Positions 9,346-25,420 of a stretch of DNA of 64,000 nucleotides are shown one piece after another. The notes below the pieces were generated by a model. The model ran no database searches. It worked only from the letters and a program-made list of their open reading frames with translations, and was not told where the DNA came from. Position 1 is the stretch's first letter. Every line of letters begins with the position of its first letter. Source of the stretch: an uncultured Chthonomonadaceae bacterium (GTDB lineage Bacteria > Armatimonadota > Chthonomonadetes > Chthonomonadales > Chthonomonadaceae); assembly GCA_963817895.1 (NCBI GenBank), contig CAWFQB010000014.1, positions 713,680-777,679 on the forward strand. Reading direction: 5' to 3'. A program made the translations under genes and the position numbers.

Positions 9346-10164
9346 TTGTCTGAATTGCCCTACCATTTGTGCGCGGTTGATATGGACGATACGCTGCTCG
9401 ATCCAAACCATGAGATTACGCCTGTAAGCGCCGTCGCCGTGCAGAAAGTTCGGGATTTGGGAGTTACCGTTGTCGTGGCGTCGGGGAGGATGCATGCCGC
9501 TACACGACGCTATACGCGGCAACTGAATCTGGATACGCCCGTAATCTCCTATAACGGCGCAATGGTGAAGAACGCGGCAACCGGGGAGGTGTGGCTGGAA
9601 GAGCATGTCAGCGCGGAACTGGCCGCCACAATTCGGCAATACGCGCGGGAAAACAACCTGCAACTGAACTACTACCTGCATGATATGCTGTATTCCGCCG
9701 CGCAAACGCAGTGGCTGGACTTGTATCAGGGGCGCACGGGCGCGCCCATTGAGATACTGCCCGATTTTGAGGAGAAACTGCGCGGCACGACGCCTACCAA
9801 ACTGGTCTTTGTGGATTCGCCGGAGCGTATTGCCGGATTGCTTAAACCGATGCAGGAGCGGTTCGGAAAGCAGGCGTATGTCACGCGCAGCAACGACGAG
9901 TATCTGGAATTCATGCCGCCCGATGCCGACAAAGGCAAGGCGCTGGCATTAGTCGCCGCAAAGTTAAACATACCCGCCGCGCAAATCATCGCCTTTGGAG
10001 ATAGCTGGAACGATATTCCCATGCTGAAATGGGCCGGACATAGCTGCGCCATGTCCAACGCCAAGCCCGAAGTATGCAGCGTTGCCACTGAAGTTATTGG
10101 CAGCAACGCGGAAGATGGCGTAGCCCACGCATTGGCGAATATTTACGGCTTTACGCTTGACTAA
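9346..10164 (+). CDS. Cof-type HAD-IIB hydrolase
   Basis: DMDDTLL, ASGR, ISYNGA, AFGDSWNDIPML. Confidence 0.93.
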   Translation: MSELPYHLCAVDMDDTLLDPNHEITPVSAVAVQKVRDLGVTVVVASGRMHAATRRYTRQLNLDTPVISYNGAMVKNAATGEVWLEEHVSAELAATIRQYARENNLQLNYYLHDMLYSAAQTQWLDLYQGRTGAPIEILPDFEEKLRGTTPTKLVFVDSPERIAGLLKPMQERFGKQAYVTRSNDEYLEFMPPDADKGKALALVAAKLNIPAAQIIAFGDSWNDIPMLKWAGHSCAMSNAKPEVCSVATEVIGSNAEDGVAHALANIYGFTLD

Positions 10165-10176
10165 GAGCCTATACTG

Positions 10177-10230
10177 AGTAGCCCTCAACCCCTGACCCCT
10201 TCTCCCAAAAAGGCTTGGGAGAAGGGGAAC
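10177..10230. repeat. REP-like palindromic element, family A, copy 1
   Basis: 51/54 identical to 51198-51251; stem CCCCTTCTCCC..GGGAGAAGGGG; partial reverse copy at 35481-35520. Confidence 0.85.
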
Positions 10231-10274
10231 CTATTGGCATAGACTGATTTAAACGCCTTGCAGGAGAAAATTTT

Positions 10275-11105
10275 ATGTCACTCTTGAAACCGCTCGACGG
10301 CAGTAAGAAGGTTCAGCTTTCCAAAATTGACCCGTCCGATACGGGCAAGATGAATCATGACGACGCAAGGAAGCAGGAGGACGATCTGAAGACGGAGTTG
10401 GCAGAACTGCAAACGCTGCTGTACGCCGCGCAGCAAACGCCCCTGCTGATTGTGCTACAGGGCATGGATACGGCGGGTAAAGATGGCGCGATTCGCGGAT
10501 TGTCCGGCGCGATGAATCCGCAAAGCTGCCGGGTCGCCACCTTCAAAGTGCCGACGCCTGCCGAGGCCTCTCACGATTTTCTCTGGCGCGTCCATGCCGA
10601 AACACCCGGCAAAGGCAACGTCACTATTTTCAACCGTTCGCACTATGAGGATGTGCTGGTCGTTCGCGTCCACAATCTGATTCCCAAAGCGGATTGGGAA
10701 AAGCGGTACGACCATATCAACAACTTCGAGCGCCTGCTGACGGATTCGGGTACGATTGTGCGTAAATTCTTCCTGCACATCAGCAAGGACGAGCAGGAAC
10801 AGCGGCTCCTGGCGCGGGAACAGGACCCCACAAAATCGTGGAAGTTGTCGCCACAGGACTGGAAAGAGCGAGAACTGTGGGACGACTATCAGACCGCCTA
10901 TGAGGACGCGCTCAACCGCTGCGCCACGCCCGACGCGCCCTGGTATATTGTTCCCGCCGACCACAAATGGTTCCGCGACATCGCCATTGCTCAAACGCTG
11001 GTAGATACGCTCAAGCCCCTGCGCAACGATTGGATGCAACTGCTGAAATCGAGAGGCGCGGAAGAACTGAAACAACTCCGCGCCATGCGCCAGCAGCACT
11101 CATAG
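10275..11105 (+). CDS. ppk2: Polyphosphate kinase 2 family protein (class III-like)
   Basis: LQGMDTAGKDG, HDFLWR, FNRSHYEDVL, PWYIVPADHKWFR. Confidence 0.93.
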   Translation: MSLLKPLDGSKKVQLSKIDPSDTGKMNHDDARKQEDDLKTELAELQTLLYAAQQTPLLIVLQGMDTAGKDGAIRGLSGAMNPQSCRVATFKVPTPAEASHDFLWRVHAETPGKGNVTIFNRSHYEDVLVVRVHNLIPKADWEKRYDHINNFERLLTDSGTIVRKFFLHISKDEQEQRLLAREQDPTKSWKLSPQDWKERELWDDYQTAYEDALNRCATPDAPWYIVPADHKWFRDIAIAQTLVDTLKPLRNDWMQLLKSRGAEELKQLRAMRQQHS

Positions 11106-11531
11106 GCTGTCCTGTAACAACTGTATCGTTTGCAGCGCGTCGGGGCGGGGAACCTGACGGATTTCAAAGCCGTCCGCAAAATAGATCGCGCGGCTGTCAT
11201 GCAGATGGAAGTTTGCCCACTGCGCGGCGGACAGGCCGAAATGATCCTGTATGTGGACGTTCGCGCCATGCGCCAACAAGAGGCGAACCACATTCGGGCG
11301 CGCGTTTCGGGCCGCCGCCATCAGGGGCGTATCGCCGAACCGATCCTGCGCGTTGATGTTCGCGCCCCTGCCAAGCCAGTACGCCGCTTCCTGCGCCTGC
11401 CCCTCGTCGGCAGCCTGCGCCAAACGCGCGCTCACATAGGCCACGCAGCAGGCGCGTTCAACCGTCTGCCCCGCAAAACCTCCTGCCGCAAACGCGAACA
11501 TCGCCAGAGCGGTTCGCAGCGGCAGCGACAT
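11100..11531 (-). CDS. Ankyrin-repeat protein
   Basis: GANINAQDRFGDTPLMAAA..VVRLLLAHGANV. Confidence 0.85.
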   Translation of the reverse strand: MSLPLRTALAMFAFAAGGFAGQTVERACCVAYVSARLAQAADEGQAQEAAYWLGRGANINAQDRFGDTPLMAAARNARPNVVRLLLAHGANVHIQDHFGLSAAQWANFHLHDSRAIYFADGFEIRQVPRPDALQTIQLLQDSL

Positions 11532-11637
11532 TTTAATGCCAATTGTTACCATAGCGCTTTGTTCTCCATAAAGGGGTATTGCTCATGCCCGAACAGGCGC
11601 ATTTCGGAGACGCGCCTGGGATACTGGCGAAAAGTAG

Positions 11638-12456
11638 TCAGCGCCCCATGTAGGGACTATCATCCCATAACGCCAATTGACTTGATGTACCCGGCAGGCT
11701 CACATTGCCTTGTTTGTCTAACTTATGCTGGTCTGCTATCGCTCCGAACCATTTGCACAGGAGGTCTGCATCCATAACAACACGCCCATAGTGATTCCGC
11801 TGAACGCTTAACAATTCTTCAATCTCAATGTTACGCCGGTGGTGCAGAATGTACCGGGTGAGCAACGGCCCCATCGTAAAATTAAGGCGTGATGTTGTTA
11901 GCAAAGAGCGAACAATGCACAAAGCGGGGTAAGGATTCGCCTCCAAGTTGATTTCGACAGTCTGATTGAGAAAAGCCTCGAAGAAACCATGAGAGTAGAT
12001 TGTTCGCTTCCGTTTTTTACCGCCCAGTTCAACGGCAATGGCTTCGACATTCAAAAAGGTGGTTTGGGGCAGGTCAGCAAAATCAGCATGTCGAACATGG
12101 CTTTCTCGGAAAGCCCAGGTATCGTTCAGCGTCCACATGTCGAATAGCCAACCTTGATGTTCCATGTGCAAACCGCCAAACCGCGTATCTCGTATGAAGT
12201 GCCTTTTCATAGTTTTGCGCATGTCGCAAGTGGAAACACCGCCAATGACTACATCCACATCGCGCACTTGCGCTTTCAAACCATTACTCAGCAGATCACG
12301 CGCGACGCCGCCGAATATATATGCCGACCATTGATTTTCGTAGATGTGACCAAGCACAGACTGCATCGGCTTACGCCTGCGCGTCTCTTTAGTCAGAAAG
12401 TCACTGATTCTATGGCGGAGAATTTGCTCCTGTTGTTCAATCTTTGCGTCAGCCAT
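11638..12456 (-). CDS. Nucleotidyltransferase with CCA/poly(A)-polymerase-like head motif
   Basis: YIFGGVARDLL..RDVDVV plus a third carboxylate in FDMW. Start overlaps the dGTPase end by 8 nt. Confidence 0.75.
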   Translation of the reverse strand: MADAKIEQQEQILRHRISDFLTKETRRRKPMQSVLGHIYENQWSAYIFGGVARDLLSNGLKAQVRDVDVVIGGVSTCDMRKTMKRHFIRDTRFGGLHMEHQGWLFDMWTLNDTWAFRESHVRHADFADLPQTTFLNVEAIAVELGGKKRKRTIYSHGFFEAFLNQTVEINLEANPYPALCIVRSLLTTSRLNFTMGPLLTRYILHHRRNIEIEELLSVQRNHYGRVVMDADLLCKWFGAIADQHKLDKQGNVSLPGTSSQLALWDDSPYMGR

Positions 12457-13819
12457 TTTTTAGTTGTTTGTGCAATGTACAGGCGAATGTATCCGTCATG
12501 CCGCAAACATAATCGGTGAGCAGCTGCCGTTGACAGTAGATTTTGGGCAGCCCCTCTTTAAGCGCCTCATTGTAAACTTTACGGTAGTTGTTAGACATCA
12601 TATTGTGAATTTTGCCGGGAAATGTTTTCACGCCCCGCCCACCTTCAGCATCTGACGCTCCCTCCCAGAAAATGTCCATCAAATCGTGTATAACCTCCCT
12701 GCCCATCACTTCAAGCCGAAGCGTTTCCTTAGATGTATATACATGCTTCTTCGCAAATTCCTTACAAGCCTCGACAAAGCGAGCGGCCTCACAGTAAGGA
12801 TCACTAATGAGTTCTTTATGATACTCGCCACGCATGATCGTCTCGTAGTAATGCTTGAACGCTTCAATAACGGCAACAACCATCGCGCCTATGCCATTGA
12901 CGCGGAAATACTGAACGTTTACTTCATCATCATTTCCCTTATCCGAAGCAGCCAAACATTTATTTATCATAGGACAGTTATATTGCTTCAATTCCTCTTT
13001 GATTGTATTCCAACGTACCACACCTTTCTTGACAGCATCCTCTATATCTACGACAGAGTAGACAATATCATCGCTTGCTTCAACGAGGTAAGTAATCGGG
13101 TTACGCGCTTCGCCAGTTCCGGTTGCGGCACGAATCTCTTCAATTACCCTGTTTTCCGAGGCAAAGTAGCCCGGCTTTTTCTTTTCCTGCTCGGCTGTGA
13201 TTTTATCCGAAGCGGCAATATACTTGCACACAGCAGAGAGTGTGCCATACGTAAGGTTCAGGCCGAAATAATCCTCCAGAATTTGCAGACGAGCAATTAG
13301 GCGCAACGTTTGCGCGTTGCCTTCAAAATTCCAGAAATCGTTCGCAAGCTGTTCTGAACGATATGTTGCTACAGACGCATTGAATGAGTGTGCAAAATCT
13401 CGAACAGGATCAAGACTGAGCGGATACAATTTATGGAACCAACTGCTAATTGCCTGTTCGCCAGCGTGACCAAAAGGCGGGTTGCCAAGATCATGAAGTA
13501 AGCCGCAAGTAGCGGCAATAATTGGAATTTCTTTCGCCTGTGATAAAGGTAAACCCTCTTTCTGCATAATCCACTCTGCCGCTTTACCTGACAAATCGCG
13601 GGCGACAGTGGACACTTCAAGCGAATGGGTAAGACGAGTTCTCACGGCATCGTGTGGCTCCAAAGGAAACACCTGCGCTTTGTCTTGTAAGCGACGTACA
13701 GGCGTGGAGAAAACAGAACGATCATAGTCTCGCTCGAACTCAGACCTGAATTCTCCACTTCGCTTTTGTGTTCCGCGTCGGCGTTCGCTATTTAGAAGTT
13801 GGTTCCACTGCATTCTCAT
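12449..13819 (-). CDS. dgt: dGTP triphosphohydrolase (HD family), probably defence-associated
   Basis: RRLQDKAQVF, RTRLTHSLEV, HDLGNPPFGHAGE, FEGNAQ, EASDDIVY, DYVCGMTD. Confidence 0.93.
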   Translation of the reverse strand: MRMQWNQLLNSERRRGTQKRSGEFRSEFERDYDRSVFSTPVRRLQDKAQVFPLEPHDAVRTRLTHSLEVSTVARDLSGKAAEWIMQKEGLPLSQAKEIPIIAATCGLLHDLGNPPFGHAGEQAISSWFHKLYPLSLDPVRDFAHSFNASVATYRSEQLANDFWNFEGNAQTLRLIARLQILEDYFGLNLTYGTLSAVCKYIAASDKITAEQEKKKPGYFASENRVIEEIRAATGTGEARNPITYLVEASDDIVYSVVDIEDAVKKGVVRWNTIKEELKQYNCPMINKCLAASDKGNDDEVNVQYFRVNGIGAMVVAVIEAFKHYYETIMRGEYHKELISDPYCEAARFVEACKEFAKKHVYTSKETLRLEVMGREVIHDLMDIFWEGASDAEGGRGVKTFPGKIHNMMSNNYRKVYNEALKEGLPKIYCQRQLLTDYVCGMTDTFACTLHKQLKNG

Positions 13820-13915
13820 TGGCTATTCTCCATCCACAAAGTTACCAAAGCATTATACTTCATTCAGGATACAAGAATGGTTAATTTACTACGCCTTGCT
13901 TTACGCCCATAAGCA

Positions 13916-14743
13916 CTAACTGCCGGTCGAGCGATAGTGGCGGACGCCGAAGTTCCAGAGGCGGAAGGAGAGCAACAGGAACAGGACGCCGACAAATGGG
14001 GACAGCCACGCGATTACAATGGCAGATGAATCCGGTTTCATGCCCGCATGATGCAGCAGGACTCGCGACGGCAGGTAGTTGATGCAGGCGAGGGGAATGA
14101 CGTACGTAAAGAATTTCTGCATCCATTGCGGATAGATTTCGAGGGGGTACTGCGCGGTTTCCGTGCCGCCATACGTGACCGTGTTCATGATTTCCAGACC
14201 CTCTACCGTCCAAAACGAAAGGGTTGCCTGTAGTACCTGTAGCCCGTAAAACAGACACGTTCCCCCCACAATGGAGAGCGCGATGAGCAGCAGGCTTGCA
14301 GACGTTTGCGCGGAAGGCAATTGCATGATGGCCCACGTCAGCACAACCGACGCCTGCAACAATCGCCCGAACCGCATCAACTGCAACTCCTGCGCGGCTA
14401 CCTGAAAAGCCGTGCTGCGCGGACGCAACAGCAGCCGGTCGAAATCTCCCGCCTTGACCACATTGCCGAACGTATCAAACCCCCGCCCTGCCGCTTCCGC
14501 GATGGCAAAGGCGATGCCAACCATGCCATAGAACAGCGCGATTTCCGACAACTGCCAGCCCCGCAGACTGCCGAAGCGGGCAAACAGCGCCCATATTCCC
14601 ACAAATTCAATGAGGGTCGCAAACAGGTTCCCGAACGCCAGCATCAGGAAGGAAGCGCGGTACTGCAATTGTCCGCGTATCGAAATCGCCGCATATCGCC
14701 AGTACAGTCGCCATGTATCTTGCAGGGATTTTTGAATAACCAT
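13916..14743 (-). CDS. ABC-2 family permease
   Basis: GDFDRLLLRP, QYPLEIYP, RHYRSTGS C terminus. Confidence 0.9.
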   Translation of the reverse strand: MVIQKSLQDTWRLYWRYAAISIRGQLQYRASFLMLAFGNLFATLIEFVGIWALFARFGSLRGWQLSEIALFYGMVGIAFAIAEAAGRGFDTFGNVVKAGDFDRLLLRPRSTAFQVAAQELQLMRFGRLLQASVVLTWAIMQLPSAQTSASLLLIALSIVGGTCLFYGLQVLQATLSFWTVEGLEIMNTVTYGGTETAQYPLEIYPQWMQKFFTYVIPLACINYLPSRVLLHHAGMKPDSSAIVIAWLSPFVGVLFLLLSFRLWNFGVRHYRSTGS

Positions 14744-14747
14744 AATT

Positions 14748-15551
14748 TTACCCTCCCTGAACAACGAGGCGGCGCGTGGCGTTGCGCAGCAGCAGGCGGC
14801 CAAGCATGACGAGTATCAGCGTCCACAAGGTTTGATGCAACAGCGTAGCGGGCAATTGCGCTATGGGAATGTTACCCGTATACAGGCGGAACGGCGTGTC
14901 CATCATGGCGCGGAACGGCAGAAAGTTGACGACGGGCTGCGCCCATGCGGGCATTAGCGGCACAGGGATGAGCAGGCCGGAAAACGTGTACATGACCGTC
15001 GGCGCGAGGCGCGTGATGCCGTCACCCGCAAGCGTGTACAGCAGCGTAATCGTCAGCAGGGTGGAAAACGCGGCGGCAAGGGCAAACGCTCCACAGGTTG
15101 CCGCTATCCACGCGACAAAAGCCGCAAACGTCGGCGGCAGGCGCAGGCCGAAAAACAGACCGGCAACCACAAACATCGGAATGGCGCGAAGCAGGGTTGG
15201 CGCGACGCGGGCGGCAAGGGCGCGGCTGTACCACAGGCCGTATAAATCCAGTGGACGCAGCATCTCATACGCCACGGTTCCCGTCCGTATCATGCTCCGA
15301 ACATCGGTATCCACGTTCCACATGGCAAGCGCGAACATCGCCTGCGCCAGCCATAAATAACTCACCATATCTTCAAGCGCAATCGGTTGAGGCCGCGTGG
15401 TGGACTTGTAGAACGCGGTAAAGATGGCGACGCGCAGCAGGCCCCAGAACAACTGCGTTCCAAAGCCCGCAATCGCCGCCGCGCGATATTGCAGCAGGGC
15501 GCGAAACCGGGCGGCGGCAACGGATATGTAGGGGCGCAGGGCGGCAGACAT
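14748..15551 (-). CDS. ABC-2 family permease
   Basis: IRTGTVAYEMLRP, FSGLLIPV, LVVQGG C terminus. Confidence 0.9.
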   Translation of the reverse strand: MSAALRPYISVAAARFRALLQYRAAAIAGFGTQLFWGLLRVAIFTAFYKSTTRPQPIALEDMVSYLWLAQAMFALAMWNVDTDVRSMIRTGTVAYEMLRPLDLYGLWYSRALAARVAPTLLRAIPMFVVAGLFFGLRLPPTFAAFVAWIAATCGAFALAAAFSTLLTITLLYTLAGDGITRLAPTVMYTFSGLLIPVPLMPAWAQPVVNFLPFRAMMDTPFRLYTGNIPIAQLPATLLHQTLWTLILVMLGRLLLRNATRRLVVQGG

Positions 15552-16542: not shown

Positions 16543-16635
16543 CAAAACTCCCGAAGAGATACGAGATACAAGAAGAGGAGAATAGACAGGATTTTCAGGA
16601 GGGAACAGGATTTCACTACCGCGCGCCTTGTTTCC

Positions 16636-16766
16636 GGGCATTGAAAATACCCGTCTGAGTGGCGTTCCGTCAAGCGTCCTTCGGACGCGATTCACTGGAA
16701 AATAAGCATTTGCGTCCGAAGGACGCTTGGCCGTAGGCCGTGTAGACAGGGGTTTTCAACCCCTGC
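16636..16766. repeat. REPIN-like nested inverted repeat
   Basis: caagcgtccttcggacgc (16671-16688) / gcgtccgaaggacgcttg (16712-16729), flanked by ttgaaaatacccgtct / agacaggggttttcaa. Confidence 0.7.
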
Positions 16767-16934: not shown

Positions 16935-17462
16935 TTATCGAGATAATTTTTCCAGAATTCTGCGTTCAAAGGCGAGGAGCGTTTGCTTGCGGGAAAGGCC
17001 ACCACTGTAACCGGTCAGTTTACCGTTGGCTCCGACGACACGATGGCATGGCACGACAATGGAAACGGGATTCTGGCCGTTGGCAAGCCCCACAGCGCGG
17101 CAGGCTTTCGGGTTGCCGATGCGCCGCGCCAGTTCGCCATAAGAGATTGTGGCGCCGTAGGGAAGTTTGCGCAGTTCTGCCCACACCTGTTGCTGAAACG
17201 ACGTGCCTTTGAGATTGAGCGGCAAATTGAACGTGGTTTGCCCGCCCGATAGATAGGCTTCAAGCTGCTGTTTCACTTCGGCAAAGGGCGCGGCGTTCTC
17301 ATCGCTTACCCATTCCGCCGACGCAGCCGCCTTTTGCTGTATTTCCGCCTGCGCCCGTTCTGACAGGTACAACCCGGTGAGCGCGTCACCATCCGAGGTT
17401 AAGAGAACGGGCTGATTCGGCTGGTCTATGGTGGCATAGATGGTTGTGTAATATGTGGTCAT
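16935..17462 (-). CDS. ogt: Methylated-DNA-protein-cysteine methyltransferase
   Basis: GTSFQQQVW, RAVGLANGQNP, VPCHRVVG. Confidence 0.95.
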   Translation of the reverse strand: MTTYYTTIYATIDQPNQPVLLTSDGDALTGLYLSERAQAEIQQKAAASAEWVSDENAAPFAEVKQQLEAYLSGGQTTFNLPLNLKGTSFQQQVWAELRKLPYGATISYGELARRIGNPKACRAVGLANGQNPVSIVVPCHRVVGANGKLTGYSGGLSRKQTLLAFERRILEKLSR

Positions 17463-19024
17463 GCGGGTTCCTCCAATGACTTCCACAGGTGCATGGTGGC
17501 ATACGCGCGCCAGGGACGCCACGCTTCCGAAAGAGCCAGCACCCGCTTCGGGTTCGTCTCGCCCAGCGCCTTATAAATGCCCAGGTCTGTATGCGGAAAA
17601 GCGTCCGGCCAAGCGAGGACGCGCATGGCAATATATTGCGCCGTCCAGTCGCCGATACCCGGAATGGATTTCAATTGTATCAGGGTTGGTTCAATGTCCA
17701 CGCCGGGCGTCAGCGCCAGTTTGCCTTCCGCCACCATTCGGGCAAGCGCGAGAATGGAATTGGCCCGCGTGGTGATAATGCCAGGCGCGATTAGCTCCGC
17801 CGCGTTCGCCTGCGCAACCCGCTCGGCTGTGGGCGGCAGATGCGTCAGACAGGCAAACGGCGTTGCTACCGGTTCGCCGAACGCGGCTGCAAACCGCCCG
17901 GAGATTGTAGTCGCCGCCCGAACGCTGATCTGCTGTCCCAAAATGGCGCGTGTCGCCATTTCAAAGCCGTCGAACGCGCCGGGAACGCGCAGGCCGGGGC
18001 GGGCTTGCGCCAGTTCGCCCAGATGTGCGGCAATGTGCAGCGGCGACGCTTCCAGATCGAACAACCGCTTTACTCGCGCAAGCGTGGGCAGGATAACCGG
18101 GGCCAGCGAAGCCGACAGTTCTACGCGCAGCGCGGGTTTATCGGGAATGGGGTCAACGGCAATCCAGCCCCGATGTTCACCGATACCGACCACGCGCAGA
18201 TAACGCCCCTCATCCACCGTTTCCACGCCGCTCGAAGACCGCCCGACCAGAAACGCCAGCAACGCCTCCCAATCCAGCGGCGGACGGTACGCCAATTCAA
18301 ACGTCAAAGCAAAGGAGGAAGGAGGAAGGAGGAAGGAGGAATCTTCTCCTCCTCGTATTTCGTATCTCGTATCTTGTATCTTCCCTGTTCCCTGCCCTTG
18401 CATCTCCCTTTCTCCTTTTCTCCTCTTCTCCTCTTCTCCTTGTCTTCCCCGGCGCAGTTGGGTCGGGTTCAGGCGATAGCGTTCCTTGAACAGCGCGTTG
18501 AAACGACGCAGGCTGGAAAATCCACTGGCGGCAGCCACTTCGCTGACAGCCATGTTCGTGTCGGTGAGCAGGCGTTTGGCGAGCAGCAGGCGTTGTGTTT
18601 GCGCCAGAGCGACGGGCGATACGCCGAATTCCGTTTCAACGACGCGCCGCAGATGGCGGGAACTGATGCCGGTGTCCGCAGCCAGATCTTCCACGCTGCC
18701 TTCCGTCAACGCGCCATCTTCGATGCGTCCGGCAATTTGGGCGGCAAGACGGCTTGTAGCGTCAACACCCGCGTTTCCCGGCGCGCGTTCCGGGCGGCAG
18801 CGCAGGCAGGGGCGAAAACCGGCGCGTTCCGCCGCTGCCGCGCTCGGATAAAAGGCGCAGTTTTCCCGGCGCGGCGTTCGGGCGGGGCAAACCGTACGGC
18901 AGTAAATTCCGGTTGTGGCAACGCCGACGAAGAAAACGCCGTCGAAACGCGCGTCATGCGTGAGCAGAGCCTGATAGCAAGCGTCTTTATCCAGTGTTCT
19001 GGTTACTGCCATGTTGCTTTTCAT
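17459..19024 (-). CDS. alkA: Ada Zn-binding/AraC-AlkA fusion DNA-3-methyladenine glycosylase
   Basis: TTGIYCRTVC..FRPCLRC, AraC HTH, ILGQQIS, PGIGDWTAQY, WRPWRAYA; carries a low-complexity insert. Confidence 0.93.
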   Translation of the reverse strand: MKSNMAVTRTLDKDACYQALLTHDARFDGVFFVGVATTGIYCRTVCPARTPRRENCAFYPSAAAAERAGFRPCLRCRPERAPGNAGVDATSRLAAQIAGRIEDGALTEGSVEDLAADTGISSRHLRRVVETEFGVSPVALAQTQRLLLAKRLLTDTNMAVSEVAAASGFSSLRRFNALFKERYRLNPTQLRRGRQGEEEKRRKGEREMQGQGTGKIQDTRYEIRGGEDSSFLLPPSSFALTFELAYRPPLDWEALLAFLVGRSSSGVETVDEGRYLRVVGIGEHRGWIAVDPIPDKPALRVELSASLAPVILPTLARVKRLFDLEASPLHIAAHLGELAQARPGLRVPGAFDGFEMATRAILGQQISVRAATTISGRFAAAFGEPVATPFACLTHLPPTAERVAQANAAELIAPGIITTRANSILALARMVAEGKLALTPGVDIEPTLIQLKSIPGIGDWTAQYIAMRVLAWPDAFPHTDLGIYKALGETNPKRVLALSEAWRPWRAYATMHLWKSLEEPA

Positions 19025-25006: not shown

Positions 25007-25420
25007 ATGGCGGAAACGAACGCGGAAAAAGCAAAGCGTTGGCGGGAAGCAGCCCTTGTCACGTTGAACACGGCGAAACAGCTTCGGAATCAAGCGGACG
25101 CGCGTTCCTGCGTCAGCCGCGCCTACTACGCTGTTTTCCAAATGGTCACTTCCGTATGTATCGCGCATGGCGACTCTACGCAGTTTCCGTCGGGTTGGAA
25201 CAATCCTTCACATGAACAGTTGCCTGAGTTGATTTTCAAGAATGGGAACTACTCAATGTCTACCCGACGAACTGTTCGAAGGATACTGAAGGAGATGCGA
25301 GTCTTGCGTGAAGACGCGGATTATCGCGTCGGGCGAACGGTAGACGCTCAATCTGCCCAAACCGCTTTACAGATGGCTCACGCTATTTTTGAGCGACTGG
25401 AGAACCCACATGATTTCTGA
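25007..25420 (+). CDS. HEPN-domain protein
   Basis: SRAYYAVF..H..LREDADY. Confidence 0.8.
   Translation: MAETNAEKAKRWREAALVTLNTAKQLRNQADARSCVSRAYYAVFQMVTSVCIAHGDSTQFPSGWNNPSHEQLPELIFKNGNYSMSTRRTVRRILKEMRVLREDADYRVGRTVDAQSAQTALQMAHAIFERLENPHDF

Follow-up and report, generated by a model that had tools for sequence, protein, structure and literature searches.

Genes and features of the cassette

In a 64,000-nucleotide stretch of the genome of an uncultured Chthonomonadaceae bacterium (phylum Armatimonadota; assembly GCA_963817895.1, contig CAWFQB010000014.1, positions 713,680 to 777,679 of the forward strand; hereafter the window) we found a two-gene cassette encoding a dGTP triphosphohydrolase (dGTPase) and a nucleotidyltransferase (NTase), which resembles the anti-phage system Clover. 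Clover, consisting of the dGTPase CloA and the NTase CloB, was described by Yamaguchi et al. (bioRxiv 10.1101/2025.07.09.663793) in Salmonella enterica SA20044414 and E. coli H5, and the review PMC13434031 cites the work as published in 2026. The operon of the window has a size of 2,182 bp and comprises the following features:

12449..13819, minus strand: cloA-like gene for an HD-domain dGTP triphosphohydrolase of 456 amino acids (aa) (open reading frame list, PADLOC, TIGR01353, PDB sequence matches, Foldseek)
11638..12456, minus strand: cloB-like gene for a class II (CCA/poly(A)-polymerase-type) Pol-beta nucleotidyltransferase of 272 aa (open reading frame list, motif, AlphaFold2 model, Foldseek, gene linkage)
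12449..12456, minus strand: 8-nt out-of-frame overlap ATGGCTGA, in which the cloA stop and the cloB start share bases (sequence read directly)
13820..13915, minus strand: AT-rich 5' leader with putative promoter region, 38.5% GC (sequence read directly)

The junction of the two genes reads ...AAA AAT GGC TGA, so that the NTase ATG is embedded in the end of the dGTPase gene, and the junction sequence contains no Shine-Dalgarno sequence before this ATG. The GC content of the cassette is 47.3% as opposed to 60.0% and 58.5% in its flanks, and at third codon positions (GC3) it is 46-53% in the cassette genes and 67-72% in five flanking genes. Since the dGTPase matches library models and the NTase has a large family of relatives, neither open reading frame is a chance frame, and both are real genes. 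A possible alternative start of the dGTPase is the second ATG (residue 3), which would give a protein of 454 aa; it is here that the family consensus and the CloA alignment set in. All of this agrees with a preliminary description of the locus made from its letters, which had reported an AT-richer two-gene cassette between an ankyrin and an ABC transporter gene, an intact HD dGTPase with the motifs THSLEV (residues 64-69), HDLGNPPFGH (109-118) and DDIVY (250-254), and an 8-nt overlap of this gene with a 272-aa open reading frame carrying the class II NTase motif. The latter was found as GGVARD (residues 49-54) and RDVD (65-68), with D106 as third invariant acidic residue, and the class II assignment was borne out by the structural model described below.

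Within the leader, a TATAAT sequence at 13852-13857 suggests a promoter, and a GGAG at 13828-13831 lies 8 nt ahead of the dGTPase ATG. The promoter is a suggestion only, because it escaped the mechanical sigma-70 scan, the calls of which did not exceed the chance level. The same was true of the calls of the terminator scan, which gave nothing on the minus strand in 11553..11637, and no Rfam family matched.

The dGTPase resembles CloA in sequence, fold and catalytic residues

The dGTPase matched the PADLOC dGTPase model (E 1.4e-73) and TIGR01353 (323 bits; cut-off 152 bits). Its best NCBIfam model was the generic PRK01096 with 381 bits, below the cut-off of 439 bits, and scores with the models for stand-alone defence dGTPases stayed far below the cut-offs (NF041026, NCBIfam antiphage_dGTPase, 198.6 versus 400 bits; NF003701, 171.1 versus 383 bits). 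The best phmmer matches among PDB sequences were 9p8s, 9p8t, 9p8u and 9p8v with E-values between 4e-83 and 7e-81, aligning residues 3-454 to chain residues 3-463. The next match followed at 1e-50, and the Shewanella enzyme 9p8w matched with 9e-24 over residues 12-125 only.

A Foldseek search with the AlphaFold model of the dGTPase (predicted local distance difference test, pLDDT, 87.1) placed entries titled 'Structure of CloA...' at ranks 1-6, with template modelling (TM) scores of 0.83-0.85 and 34-36% identity. According to their titles, the matched entries show the apo enzyme, the enzyme from co-expression with CloB, or the enzyme together with dGTP plus either thymidine dinucleotide triphosphate (p3diT) or deoxythymidine triphosphate (dTTP). 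The catalytic residues H65, H109/D110, H118/E121 and D250, corresponding to H69, H117/D118, H126/E129 and D242 of the Salmonella enzyme, are all intact, and the bundle of helices at the C terminus is co-linear with that of CloA in the alignment.

Two side observations concern the structures. Residues 42-60 form the sole long low-confidence stretch of the model (pLDDT ~42) and coincide with the alpha3-alpha4 loop, which in CloA orders only upon dTTP binding (10.1101/2025.07.09.663793). The CloA structures are printed as 8P9S-8P9V in the data statement of the preprint, and the PDB entries titled 'Structure of CloA...' are 9P8S-9P8V, so that two characters were apparently transposed in print.

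The allosteric pockets for inhibitor and activator are largely conserved

In Salmonella CloA the inhibitor p3diT is contacted by T25, R29, R34, D37, R38, F41, N75, N181, Q311 and R314, and dTTP by R47, D61, Q172, K256, S418, N420, A444, T449 and Y452 (10.1101/2025.07.09.663793). Asn75 reads the second thymine of p3diT and Gln311 the first, Gln127 contacts guanine, and mutation of the R29/R34/R38 triad abolishes inhibition (10.1101/2025.07.09.663793). We mapped these positions via the pairwise alignment to CloA (chain number minus 2 giving native numbering) and rechecked them with MAFFT, aligning 38 dGTPases linked to an NTase with seven NTase-less controls.

The p3diT pocket of the window dGTPase reads SRRDRFTNQR where that of Salmonella reads TRRDRFNNQR. 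Eight of the ten residues are thus identical, including the whole arginine triad; T25 falls into an indel (Ser) and N75 is Thr. The dTTP pocket (RDQKSNYTF versus RDQKSNATY in Salmonella) is identical at seven of nine positions, with Phe in place of Y452, by which the aromatic stack is preserved, and Tyr at A444, a main-chain contact. Among the 38 linked dGTPases the pocket was near-invariant (RRDRF in 33, N181 in all 38, R314 in 37), and none of the seven controls had the full set. The combination of Gln, Lys, Ser and Asn at positions 172, 256, 418 and 420 of the dTTP pocket was missing from the stand-alone controls from Geminocystis, Nitrosococcus, Rhizobium and Nostoc and was found in no control apart from Listeria, which itself has His for Q172.

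The nearest NTase-less dGTPase, the housekeeping enzyme of Listeria monocytogenes (L054:5001-6398), retains seven of the nine dTTP-pocket residues, with His for Q172 and Phe for A444, and lacks equivalents of R34, D37, F41 and R314 of the inhibitor pocket. As it keeps the dTTP pocket without these four p3diT residues, dTTP sensing may be older than the inhibitor pocket of Clover.

The nucleotidyltransferase has the CloB motif and a class II fold

The residues G49, G50, R53, R65, D66, D68, D106 and E138 of the NTase are invariant in 44 aligned family members, and D66-V-D68 and F-D106-M stayed invariant once the Bacillus and Phaeobacter proteins had been added to the alignment. This pattern fits the active site motif [D/E]h[D/E]...h[D/E]h given for CloB, a Pol-beta NTase (10.1101/2025.07.09.663793). 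The AlphaFold2 model of the protein (pLDDT 91.1; predicted TM score 0.87) had 51 Foldseek matches in the PDB at E <= 0.001, headed by A-adding enzyme, CCA-adding enzyme and poly(A) polymerase (E 7e-10, probability 1.0) and followed by FAM46. By sequence, PF01743 matched with 17.3 bits, below the 23-bit cut-off and over profile positions 1-65 of 126 only, and PDB sequences matched only at E > 0.3. With 272 aa as opposed to 342-450 aa for the fold-matched enzymes, the protein consists of head and neck only and has no body or tail, which supports the earlier remark that it is too short for a housekeeping CCA enzyme.

Relatives of the NTase were numerous. The word-indexed search returned 94, and an exhaustive profile search of 50%-identity cluster representatives gave 1,800 at E <= 0.001, 1,357 at <= 1e-10 and 596 at <= 1e-30; the best 150 matches were all close relatives. 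Matches in the ESM Atlas were clusters labelled 'nucleotidyltransferase family' or unlabelled, which we treat as a lead only. Word-indexed searches with the window NTase, a mixed profile and the Phaeobacter NTase led only to Myxococcota, Acidobacteriota, Planctomycetota, Bacilli, Alphaproteobacteria or unnamed proteins, and a tblastn search of phages with the NTase gave no match.

The window NTase is 21-26% identical to the Bacilli and alphaproteobacterial branch. Non-circular profile-profile comparisons nevertheless linked the environmental NTase family to that of the Bacilli (99.9% probability, E 3e-37, 199 columns) and to that of the Alphaproteobacteria (99.9% probability, E 4e-35, 253 columns). 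From these alignments, the dGTPase-linked NTases of Myxococcia, Bacilli and Alphaproteobacteria evidently form one superfamily. The preprint lists Myxococcia, Bacilli, Alphaproteobacteria and 'Other' among the hosts of CloB, for which it used a homology criterion of BLAST E < 0.005 to the Salmonella or C. difficile protein (10.1101/2025.07.09.663793).

The pairing and the gene overlap recur across phyla

The search for related loci with the NTase yielded 49 genomic loci, the record titles of which span nine phyla. In 46 of them tblastn found a CloA-like dGTPase, ~50% identical to that of the window, upstream on the same strand. Of the three exceptions, L024 has only 5 bases of contig left ahead of its NTase, and L002 and L045 offer upstream room but contain no dGTPase. 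Of the 46 loci, 42 have a cloA stop overlapping the cloB start, and 37 have exactly the 8-nt geometry of the window (AATGGNTRR); the four non-overlapping pairs are separated by 31, 298, 508 and 2,611 nt. This conservation of the overlap at the nucleotide level fits selection for coupled expression, the coupling itself being something we infer. Plasmids gave the same picture of gene order, as all eight records with an NTase relative (six Bacillus, two Phaeobacter; 22-30% identity) carried it directly downstream of a dGTPase, which was 36-41% identical to that of the window. No conserved third gene was found near the pair, the largest cluster of flanking open reading frames comprising four closely related loci of the 49. 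A class-level sampling around the Janthinobacterium locus (71 genomes) gave three clear matches, two with statistics identical to L009 and L045.

Some of these loci deserve separate mention. The lone NTase relatives of L002 and L045 (L074 is apparently the same as L045) are preceded by 1.3-4.3 kb without a dGTPase and resemble the 'single NTase' category in Extended Data Fig. 1a of the preprint (10.1101/2025.07.09.663793). The plasmid pairs L050, L051 and L052 (Phaeobacter, Bacillus) have gaps of 8-25 nt instead of the 8-nt overlap, and they adjoin defence-type genes, namely for a TcmP partner, an ABC-three-component system, DUF4062, a P-loop NTPase and DUF3883. In Archangium violaceum Cb vi76 (L005:3575-3589) codon 5 of cloA is TGA, which is TGG (Trp) in the close relative L003, while cloB is intact; the effector may be inactivated in this cultured strain. 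The tblastn matches of the dGTPase were split in two pieces in L028, L029, L046 and L049, where cloA may have decayed as well. We would expect decay of cloA with retention of cloB for a costly effector.

The dGTPase is not the housekeeping copy of its host

In a quick IQ-TREE phylogeny, from which L005 was left out due to its early cloA stop, the window dGTPase fell inside a clade of 35 NTase-linked dGTPases (Shimodaira-Hasegawa-like approximate likelihood ratio test, SH-aLRT, 99). A separate clade (SH-aLRT 99) comprised five of the NTase-less controls, namely the housekeeping enzyme of Bacteroides and four stand-alone enzymes from defence islands. The Bacillus-linked dGTPases grouped on long branches with the Listeria enzyme, the product of a core gene that adjoins rpsL/fusA and has no NTase next to it. 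E. coli Dgt stood apart on a very long branch, and Phaeobacter took no resolved position. Eight plasmid dGTPase matches labelled 'Escherichia' turned out to be ordinary dgt with ~31% identity and provided no bridge to CloB.

The host genome encodes a second, shorter HD dGTPase-like gene on contig C4, which has counterparts in 28 of 30 relatives. A full-length match to the window dGTPase was present in none of these 30 relatives and only in the genome of the window itself. Because the C4-type gene is the one shared by 28 of the 30, the window dGTPase is not the housekeeping Dgt. These data bear directly on the reading that the locus is ordinary housekeeping, that is, a Dgt-type dGTPase that came by chance to lie beside a truncated, RNA-tailing enzyme of the CCA/poly(A) polymerase kind. 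Such a reading could draw on the generic PRK01096 as best NCBIfam model and on the NTase library matches, which comprise only weak PolyA_pol and CCA hits. It is already contradicted by the linkage and distribution data, and we consider it extremely improbable: the pair was found in no relative searched, the pairing with its identical overlap recurs as described above, the NTase is devoid of the body and tail of CCA enzymes, and the composition of the cassette is foreign.

The cassette is a solitary acquisition among housekeeping genes

The surroundings of the cassette are described by four further features:

11553..11637, minus strand: 85-nt spacer from the cloB stop to the host ankyrin gene (from the sequence; contains a short GGCGC...GCGCC inverted repeat, no terminator called)
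11466..13916, no strand: maximum extent of DNA without counterpart in the same-genus genomes, i.e. insert plus boundary regions (DNA comparison with G001 and G002)
11100-11552: ankyrin-repeat gene, left flank
13916-14803: ABC-2 permease gene, right flank

We searched 60 relatives for the NTase (two of the same genus, 34 of the same family and 24 of the same order); the host genome assembly is 81% complete. The gene occurred once in the genome of the window and in none of the 60 relatives, among them 44 genomes with at least 90% completeness and at most 5% contamination. OprB and HEAT genes had raised the suspicion of a cyanobacterial host, but PsaA/PsaB was not found in the host assembly, while a control genome gave a match. 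Both same-genus genomes, G001 and G002, contain the genes to the left of the cassette (HAD, PPK2, ankyrin) as well as the ABC transporter to its right with 72-83% DNA identity, and homology ends at ~11465 on the left and starts at ~13917 on the right. These flanks are on separate contigs in G002, and ~3.9 Mb lies between them in G001. No counterpart of the cassette was found in either genome, and no empty site, as the flanks are not adjacent there. Neither terminal direct nor inverted repeats were found around the cassette, and no integrase or transposase was found within positions 1-34.5 kb of the window. The surrounding 34 kb encode housekeeping functions such as DnaK, DnaJ, PrmA, MGMT, Ada-AlkA and transporters. 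Due to its absence from relatives, the non-syntenic flanks, its foreign composition and its solitary position among housekeeping genes, we conclude that the cassette was acquired recently and singly by horizontal transfer, at a point where synteny is broken.

PADLOC also reported mad2, mad3, AriA and PDC-M72A in the neighbourhood. These matches represent generic methyltransferase, ABC-ATPase and ankyrin domains on housekeeping genes and were discarded as defence candidates.

A Clover-type operon as the most probable interpretation

Taken with a probability of roughly 0.8, the cassette is an intact, horizontally acquired anti-phage operon of the Clover (CloA/CloB) type. This reading builds on the structure of the genes, their homology and linkage, their folds, the conserved pockets, the accessory status and the foreign composition, all of which the analysis showed. 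Clover as a system type is already published, and the operon of the window is a further member that belongs to an environmental clade. The preliminary description had named Clover as a pair of a dGTPase, CloA, and an enzyme, CloB, making an inhibitory thymidine dinucleotide, which is accurate when compared with the preprint, and it had proposed a Clover homologue as one option and a variant with another signal as the other. The CloA entries at Foldseek ranks 1-6, the largely conserved pockets, the NTase motif and fold and the conservation of the pair across phyla speak for this proposal, with gating of the dGTPase by a nucleotide predicted by homology. Its suggestion of a new lineage held in part: the window belongs to an environmental clade, but Myxococcia and 'Other' are already among the published CloB hosts. 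Of the outcomes that it had named as speaking against the idea, none of those accessible to sequence and structure analysis was observed, as the dGTPase is distinct from the housekeeping copy, the NTase is linked to dGTPases elsewhere and the NTase fold is present.

Homology to Clover of Salmonella and E. coli allows the activities of both enzymes, their ligands, a translational coupling and a protection from phages to be predicted as follows. The dGTPase (CloA) would be inactive until dTTP enters an allosteric pocket at the dimer interface, whereby the alpha3-alpha4 loop becomes ordered. The trigger would be the rise of dTTP when a phage remodels the deoxynucleotide (dNTP) pool, and activated CloA would then drain dGTP so that phage DNA replication stops. 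The NTase (CloB) would constantly make p3diT or a close analogue in a template-independent manner, and this dinucleotide would fill the adjacent CloA pocket and compete with dTTP, keeping the toxic enzyme off in uninfected cells. Loss of the NTase would render the dGTPase toxic. The 8-nt stop/start overlap might tie CloB synthesis to CloA translation, so that no toxic enzyme would be made without its restrainer.

Several observations weigh against an assignment to Clover. Overall similarity of the dGTPase does not discriminate: the NTase-less housekeeping enzyme of Listeria scores equally well (E 1e-85, 38% identity), and E. coli Dgt follows closely behind CloA in Foldseek (28-29% identity), its fold match being nearly as good by TM score (0.77-0.85). 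Pocket residues, phylogeny and genome distribution were therefore used as discriminators. Even among the pocket residues, several arginines are also present in NTase-less enzymes, and the arginine triad alone is not diagnostic because the enzymes of Nostoc and Bacteroides carry it. On the side of the NTase, no PADLOC model matched, and no named protein of Salmonella, E. coli, Xanthomonas or Methylobacterium appeared in the word-indexed searches, in the tblastn searches of plasmids and phages or among the best 150 profile matches. The probable link to CloB thus relies on motif, fold, size, operon position and length, and host classes. The guanine contact Gln127 is Ala in the window (Ala or Ser in the clade). 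The equivalent of Asn75, Thr in the window, is Ser, Thr or Ala throughout the environmental clade, and the octamer contacts H263, H292 and R411 are Asn, Asn and Gly in the window and vary across the clade. Finally, the cassette is surrounded by housekeeping genes instead of a defence island.

The changes at ligand and interface positions raise the question of whether the chemistry is the same. In the environmental clade the reader of the second base is never Asn (among the 38 linked dGTPases only that of Phaeobacter has it). The reader of the first base, Gln311, is kept in the window, but roughly half of the clade has Ser, Thr, Val or Ala instead, and the residues at the octamer contacts have changed. 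For these reasons the clade could use another inhibitory dinucleotide and/or another assembly than Salmonella Clover, which we regard as rather unlikely. A broader version, in which the window operon has the Clover architecture and a different chemistry (another di- or oligonucleotide, activator, dNTP substrate or assembly), would also accommodate the low identity of the NTase to the Bacilli and alphaproteobacterial branch, and we judge this functional variant to be unlikely. The window dGTPase is identical to CloA in two of the three base-reading residues for p3diT (D33 and Q303 of the window), in every contact to the triphosphate and the phosphodiester, and in both base-reading residues for dTTP (D57 and T442). 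Moreover, a CloB from Xanthomonas described as 'distantly related' makes the same p3diT (10.1101/2025.07.09.663793), and Gln127 is absent from ordinary dGTPases as well, so that its loss says little about the substrate.

The solitary position of the cassette could also be taken as a sign of a selfish addiction module that keeps itself stable in the genome, with the dGTPase as toxin, the product of the NTase as antidote and little or no phage defence in the host. CloA without active CloB is highly toxic (10.1101/2025.07.09.663793), and the nonsense codon in Archangium violaceum and the split matches in four further loci would suit such a module in that cloA decays while cloB persists. We nevertheless hold it to be very improbable, as Clover of Salmonella and E. 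coli provides a more than 10,000-fold protection against T5-like phages (10.1101/2025.07.09.663793), the dTTP-sensing pocket, needed only for the response to infection, is conserved in the window and the clade, and plasmid-borne relatives lie among defence genes.

Comparison with known systems

The window operon shares with Clover the gene order, the operon length (2,182 bp versus 2,203 bp for the cloned Salmonella operon and 2,200 bp for that of E. coli; 10.1101/2025.07.09.663793) and the abutting or overlapping genes. Its dGTPase aligns with CloA over the full length and has the catalytic residues, eight of ten p3diT and seven of nine dTTP contacts, and its NTase carries the Pol-beta DxD...D motif of CloB. 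It differs from Salmonella CloA, which assembles as an octameric 'four-leaf clover' (10.1101/2025.07.09.663793), by an identity of 34-36%, by the exchanges Asn75 to Thr, Gln127 to Ala and Tyr452 to Phe and by three changed residues of the octamer interface. A further difference is that the operon of the window stands singly among housekeeping genes.

Stand-alone anti-phage dGTPases, such as that of Shewanella putrefaciens (PDB 9P8W), defend by depletion of dGTP (Tal et al. 2022, as cited in 10.1101/2025.07.09.663793) and are constitutively active (10.1101/2025.07.09.663793). The window dGTPase has the HD fold, the catalytic residues and the PADLOC dGTPase match in common with them; unlike them it has a partner NTase, belongs to a separate clade of the tree and matches 9p8w only partially. 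The housekeeping dGTPases of E. coli (Dgt), Listeria and Bacteroides have the same fold, but are core genes next to rpsL/fusA, degP or dut and have no NTase. Similarly, the window NTase resembles class II NTases (A-adding and CCA-adding enzymes, poly(A) polymerase; PF01743) in the GGxxRD...DxD head motif and the head-plus-neck fold, but it scores below the PF01743 cut-off, lacks a body or tail for binding tRNA, and was found linked to a dGTPase instead of as a core gene.

Further systems with inhibitory nucleotide signals are Hailong and Panoptes/MISS (10.1101/2025.07.09.663793). As described, they share the logic of a constitutive nucleotide that keeps an effector inactive as long as no infection upsets the balance, and differ in their effectors and signals (oligodeoxyadenylate; 2'3'-c-di-AMP).

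Clover has so far been tested only with enterobacterial operons and one Xanthomonas CloB (10.1101/2025.07.09.663793). Our data indicate that a large branch of it exists in phyla from soil and water, with 596 NTase clusters of 50% identity at E <= 1e-30, and that this environmental clade is mostly from uncultured Planctomycetota, Acidobacteriota, Verrucomicrobiota, Armatimonadota, Myxococcota and others. The almost residue-for-residue retention of both allosteric pockets supports the generality of the activator-versus-inhibitor mechanism, and the retention of the 8-nt cloA/cloB overlap at the nucleotide level across phyla argues for selection acting on the coupled expression of a toxic enzyme with the partner that restrains it. 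The variation of the clade at base-reading positions could be used to probe ligand specificity; should the variant-signal reading be true, the clade would represent a natural series for how signal specificity is encoded in CloA/CloB pairs. For annotation purposes, the pair is best named cloA/cloB instead of 'dgt' and 'hypothetical protein'.

Further observations in the window

Three observations in the window concern other elements. Two genes on the minus strand at 16935-17522 and 17459-19024, overlapping by 64 nt, encode an Ogt-like MGMT and an Ada/AlkA fusion, respectively, and represent an adaptive-response DNA-repair pair that is unrelated to the cassette. Intergenic stretches of ~60-85 nt at ~10161-10242 and ~16609-16696 have dozens of matches with 75-96% identity in G001 and G002 and look like a dispersed repeat family of the genus, similar to repetitive extragenic palindromes (REP) or miniature inverted-repeat transposable elements (MITE). 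At 25007-25420 on the plus strand, ~11 kb from the cassette, a gene encodes a 137-aa HEPN-domain protein (Pfam E 5.6e-10), which could belong to a toxin-antitoxin pair of the HEPN/MNT type.

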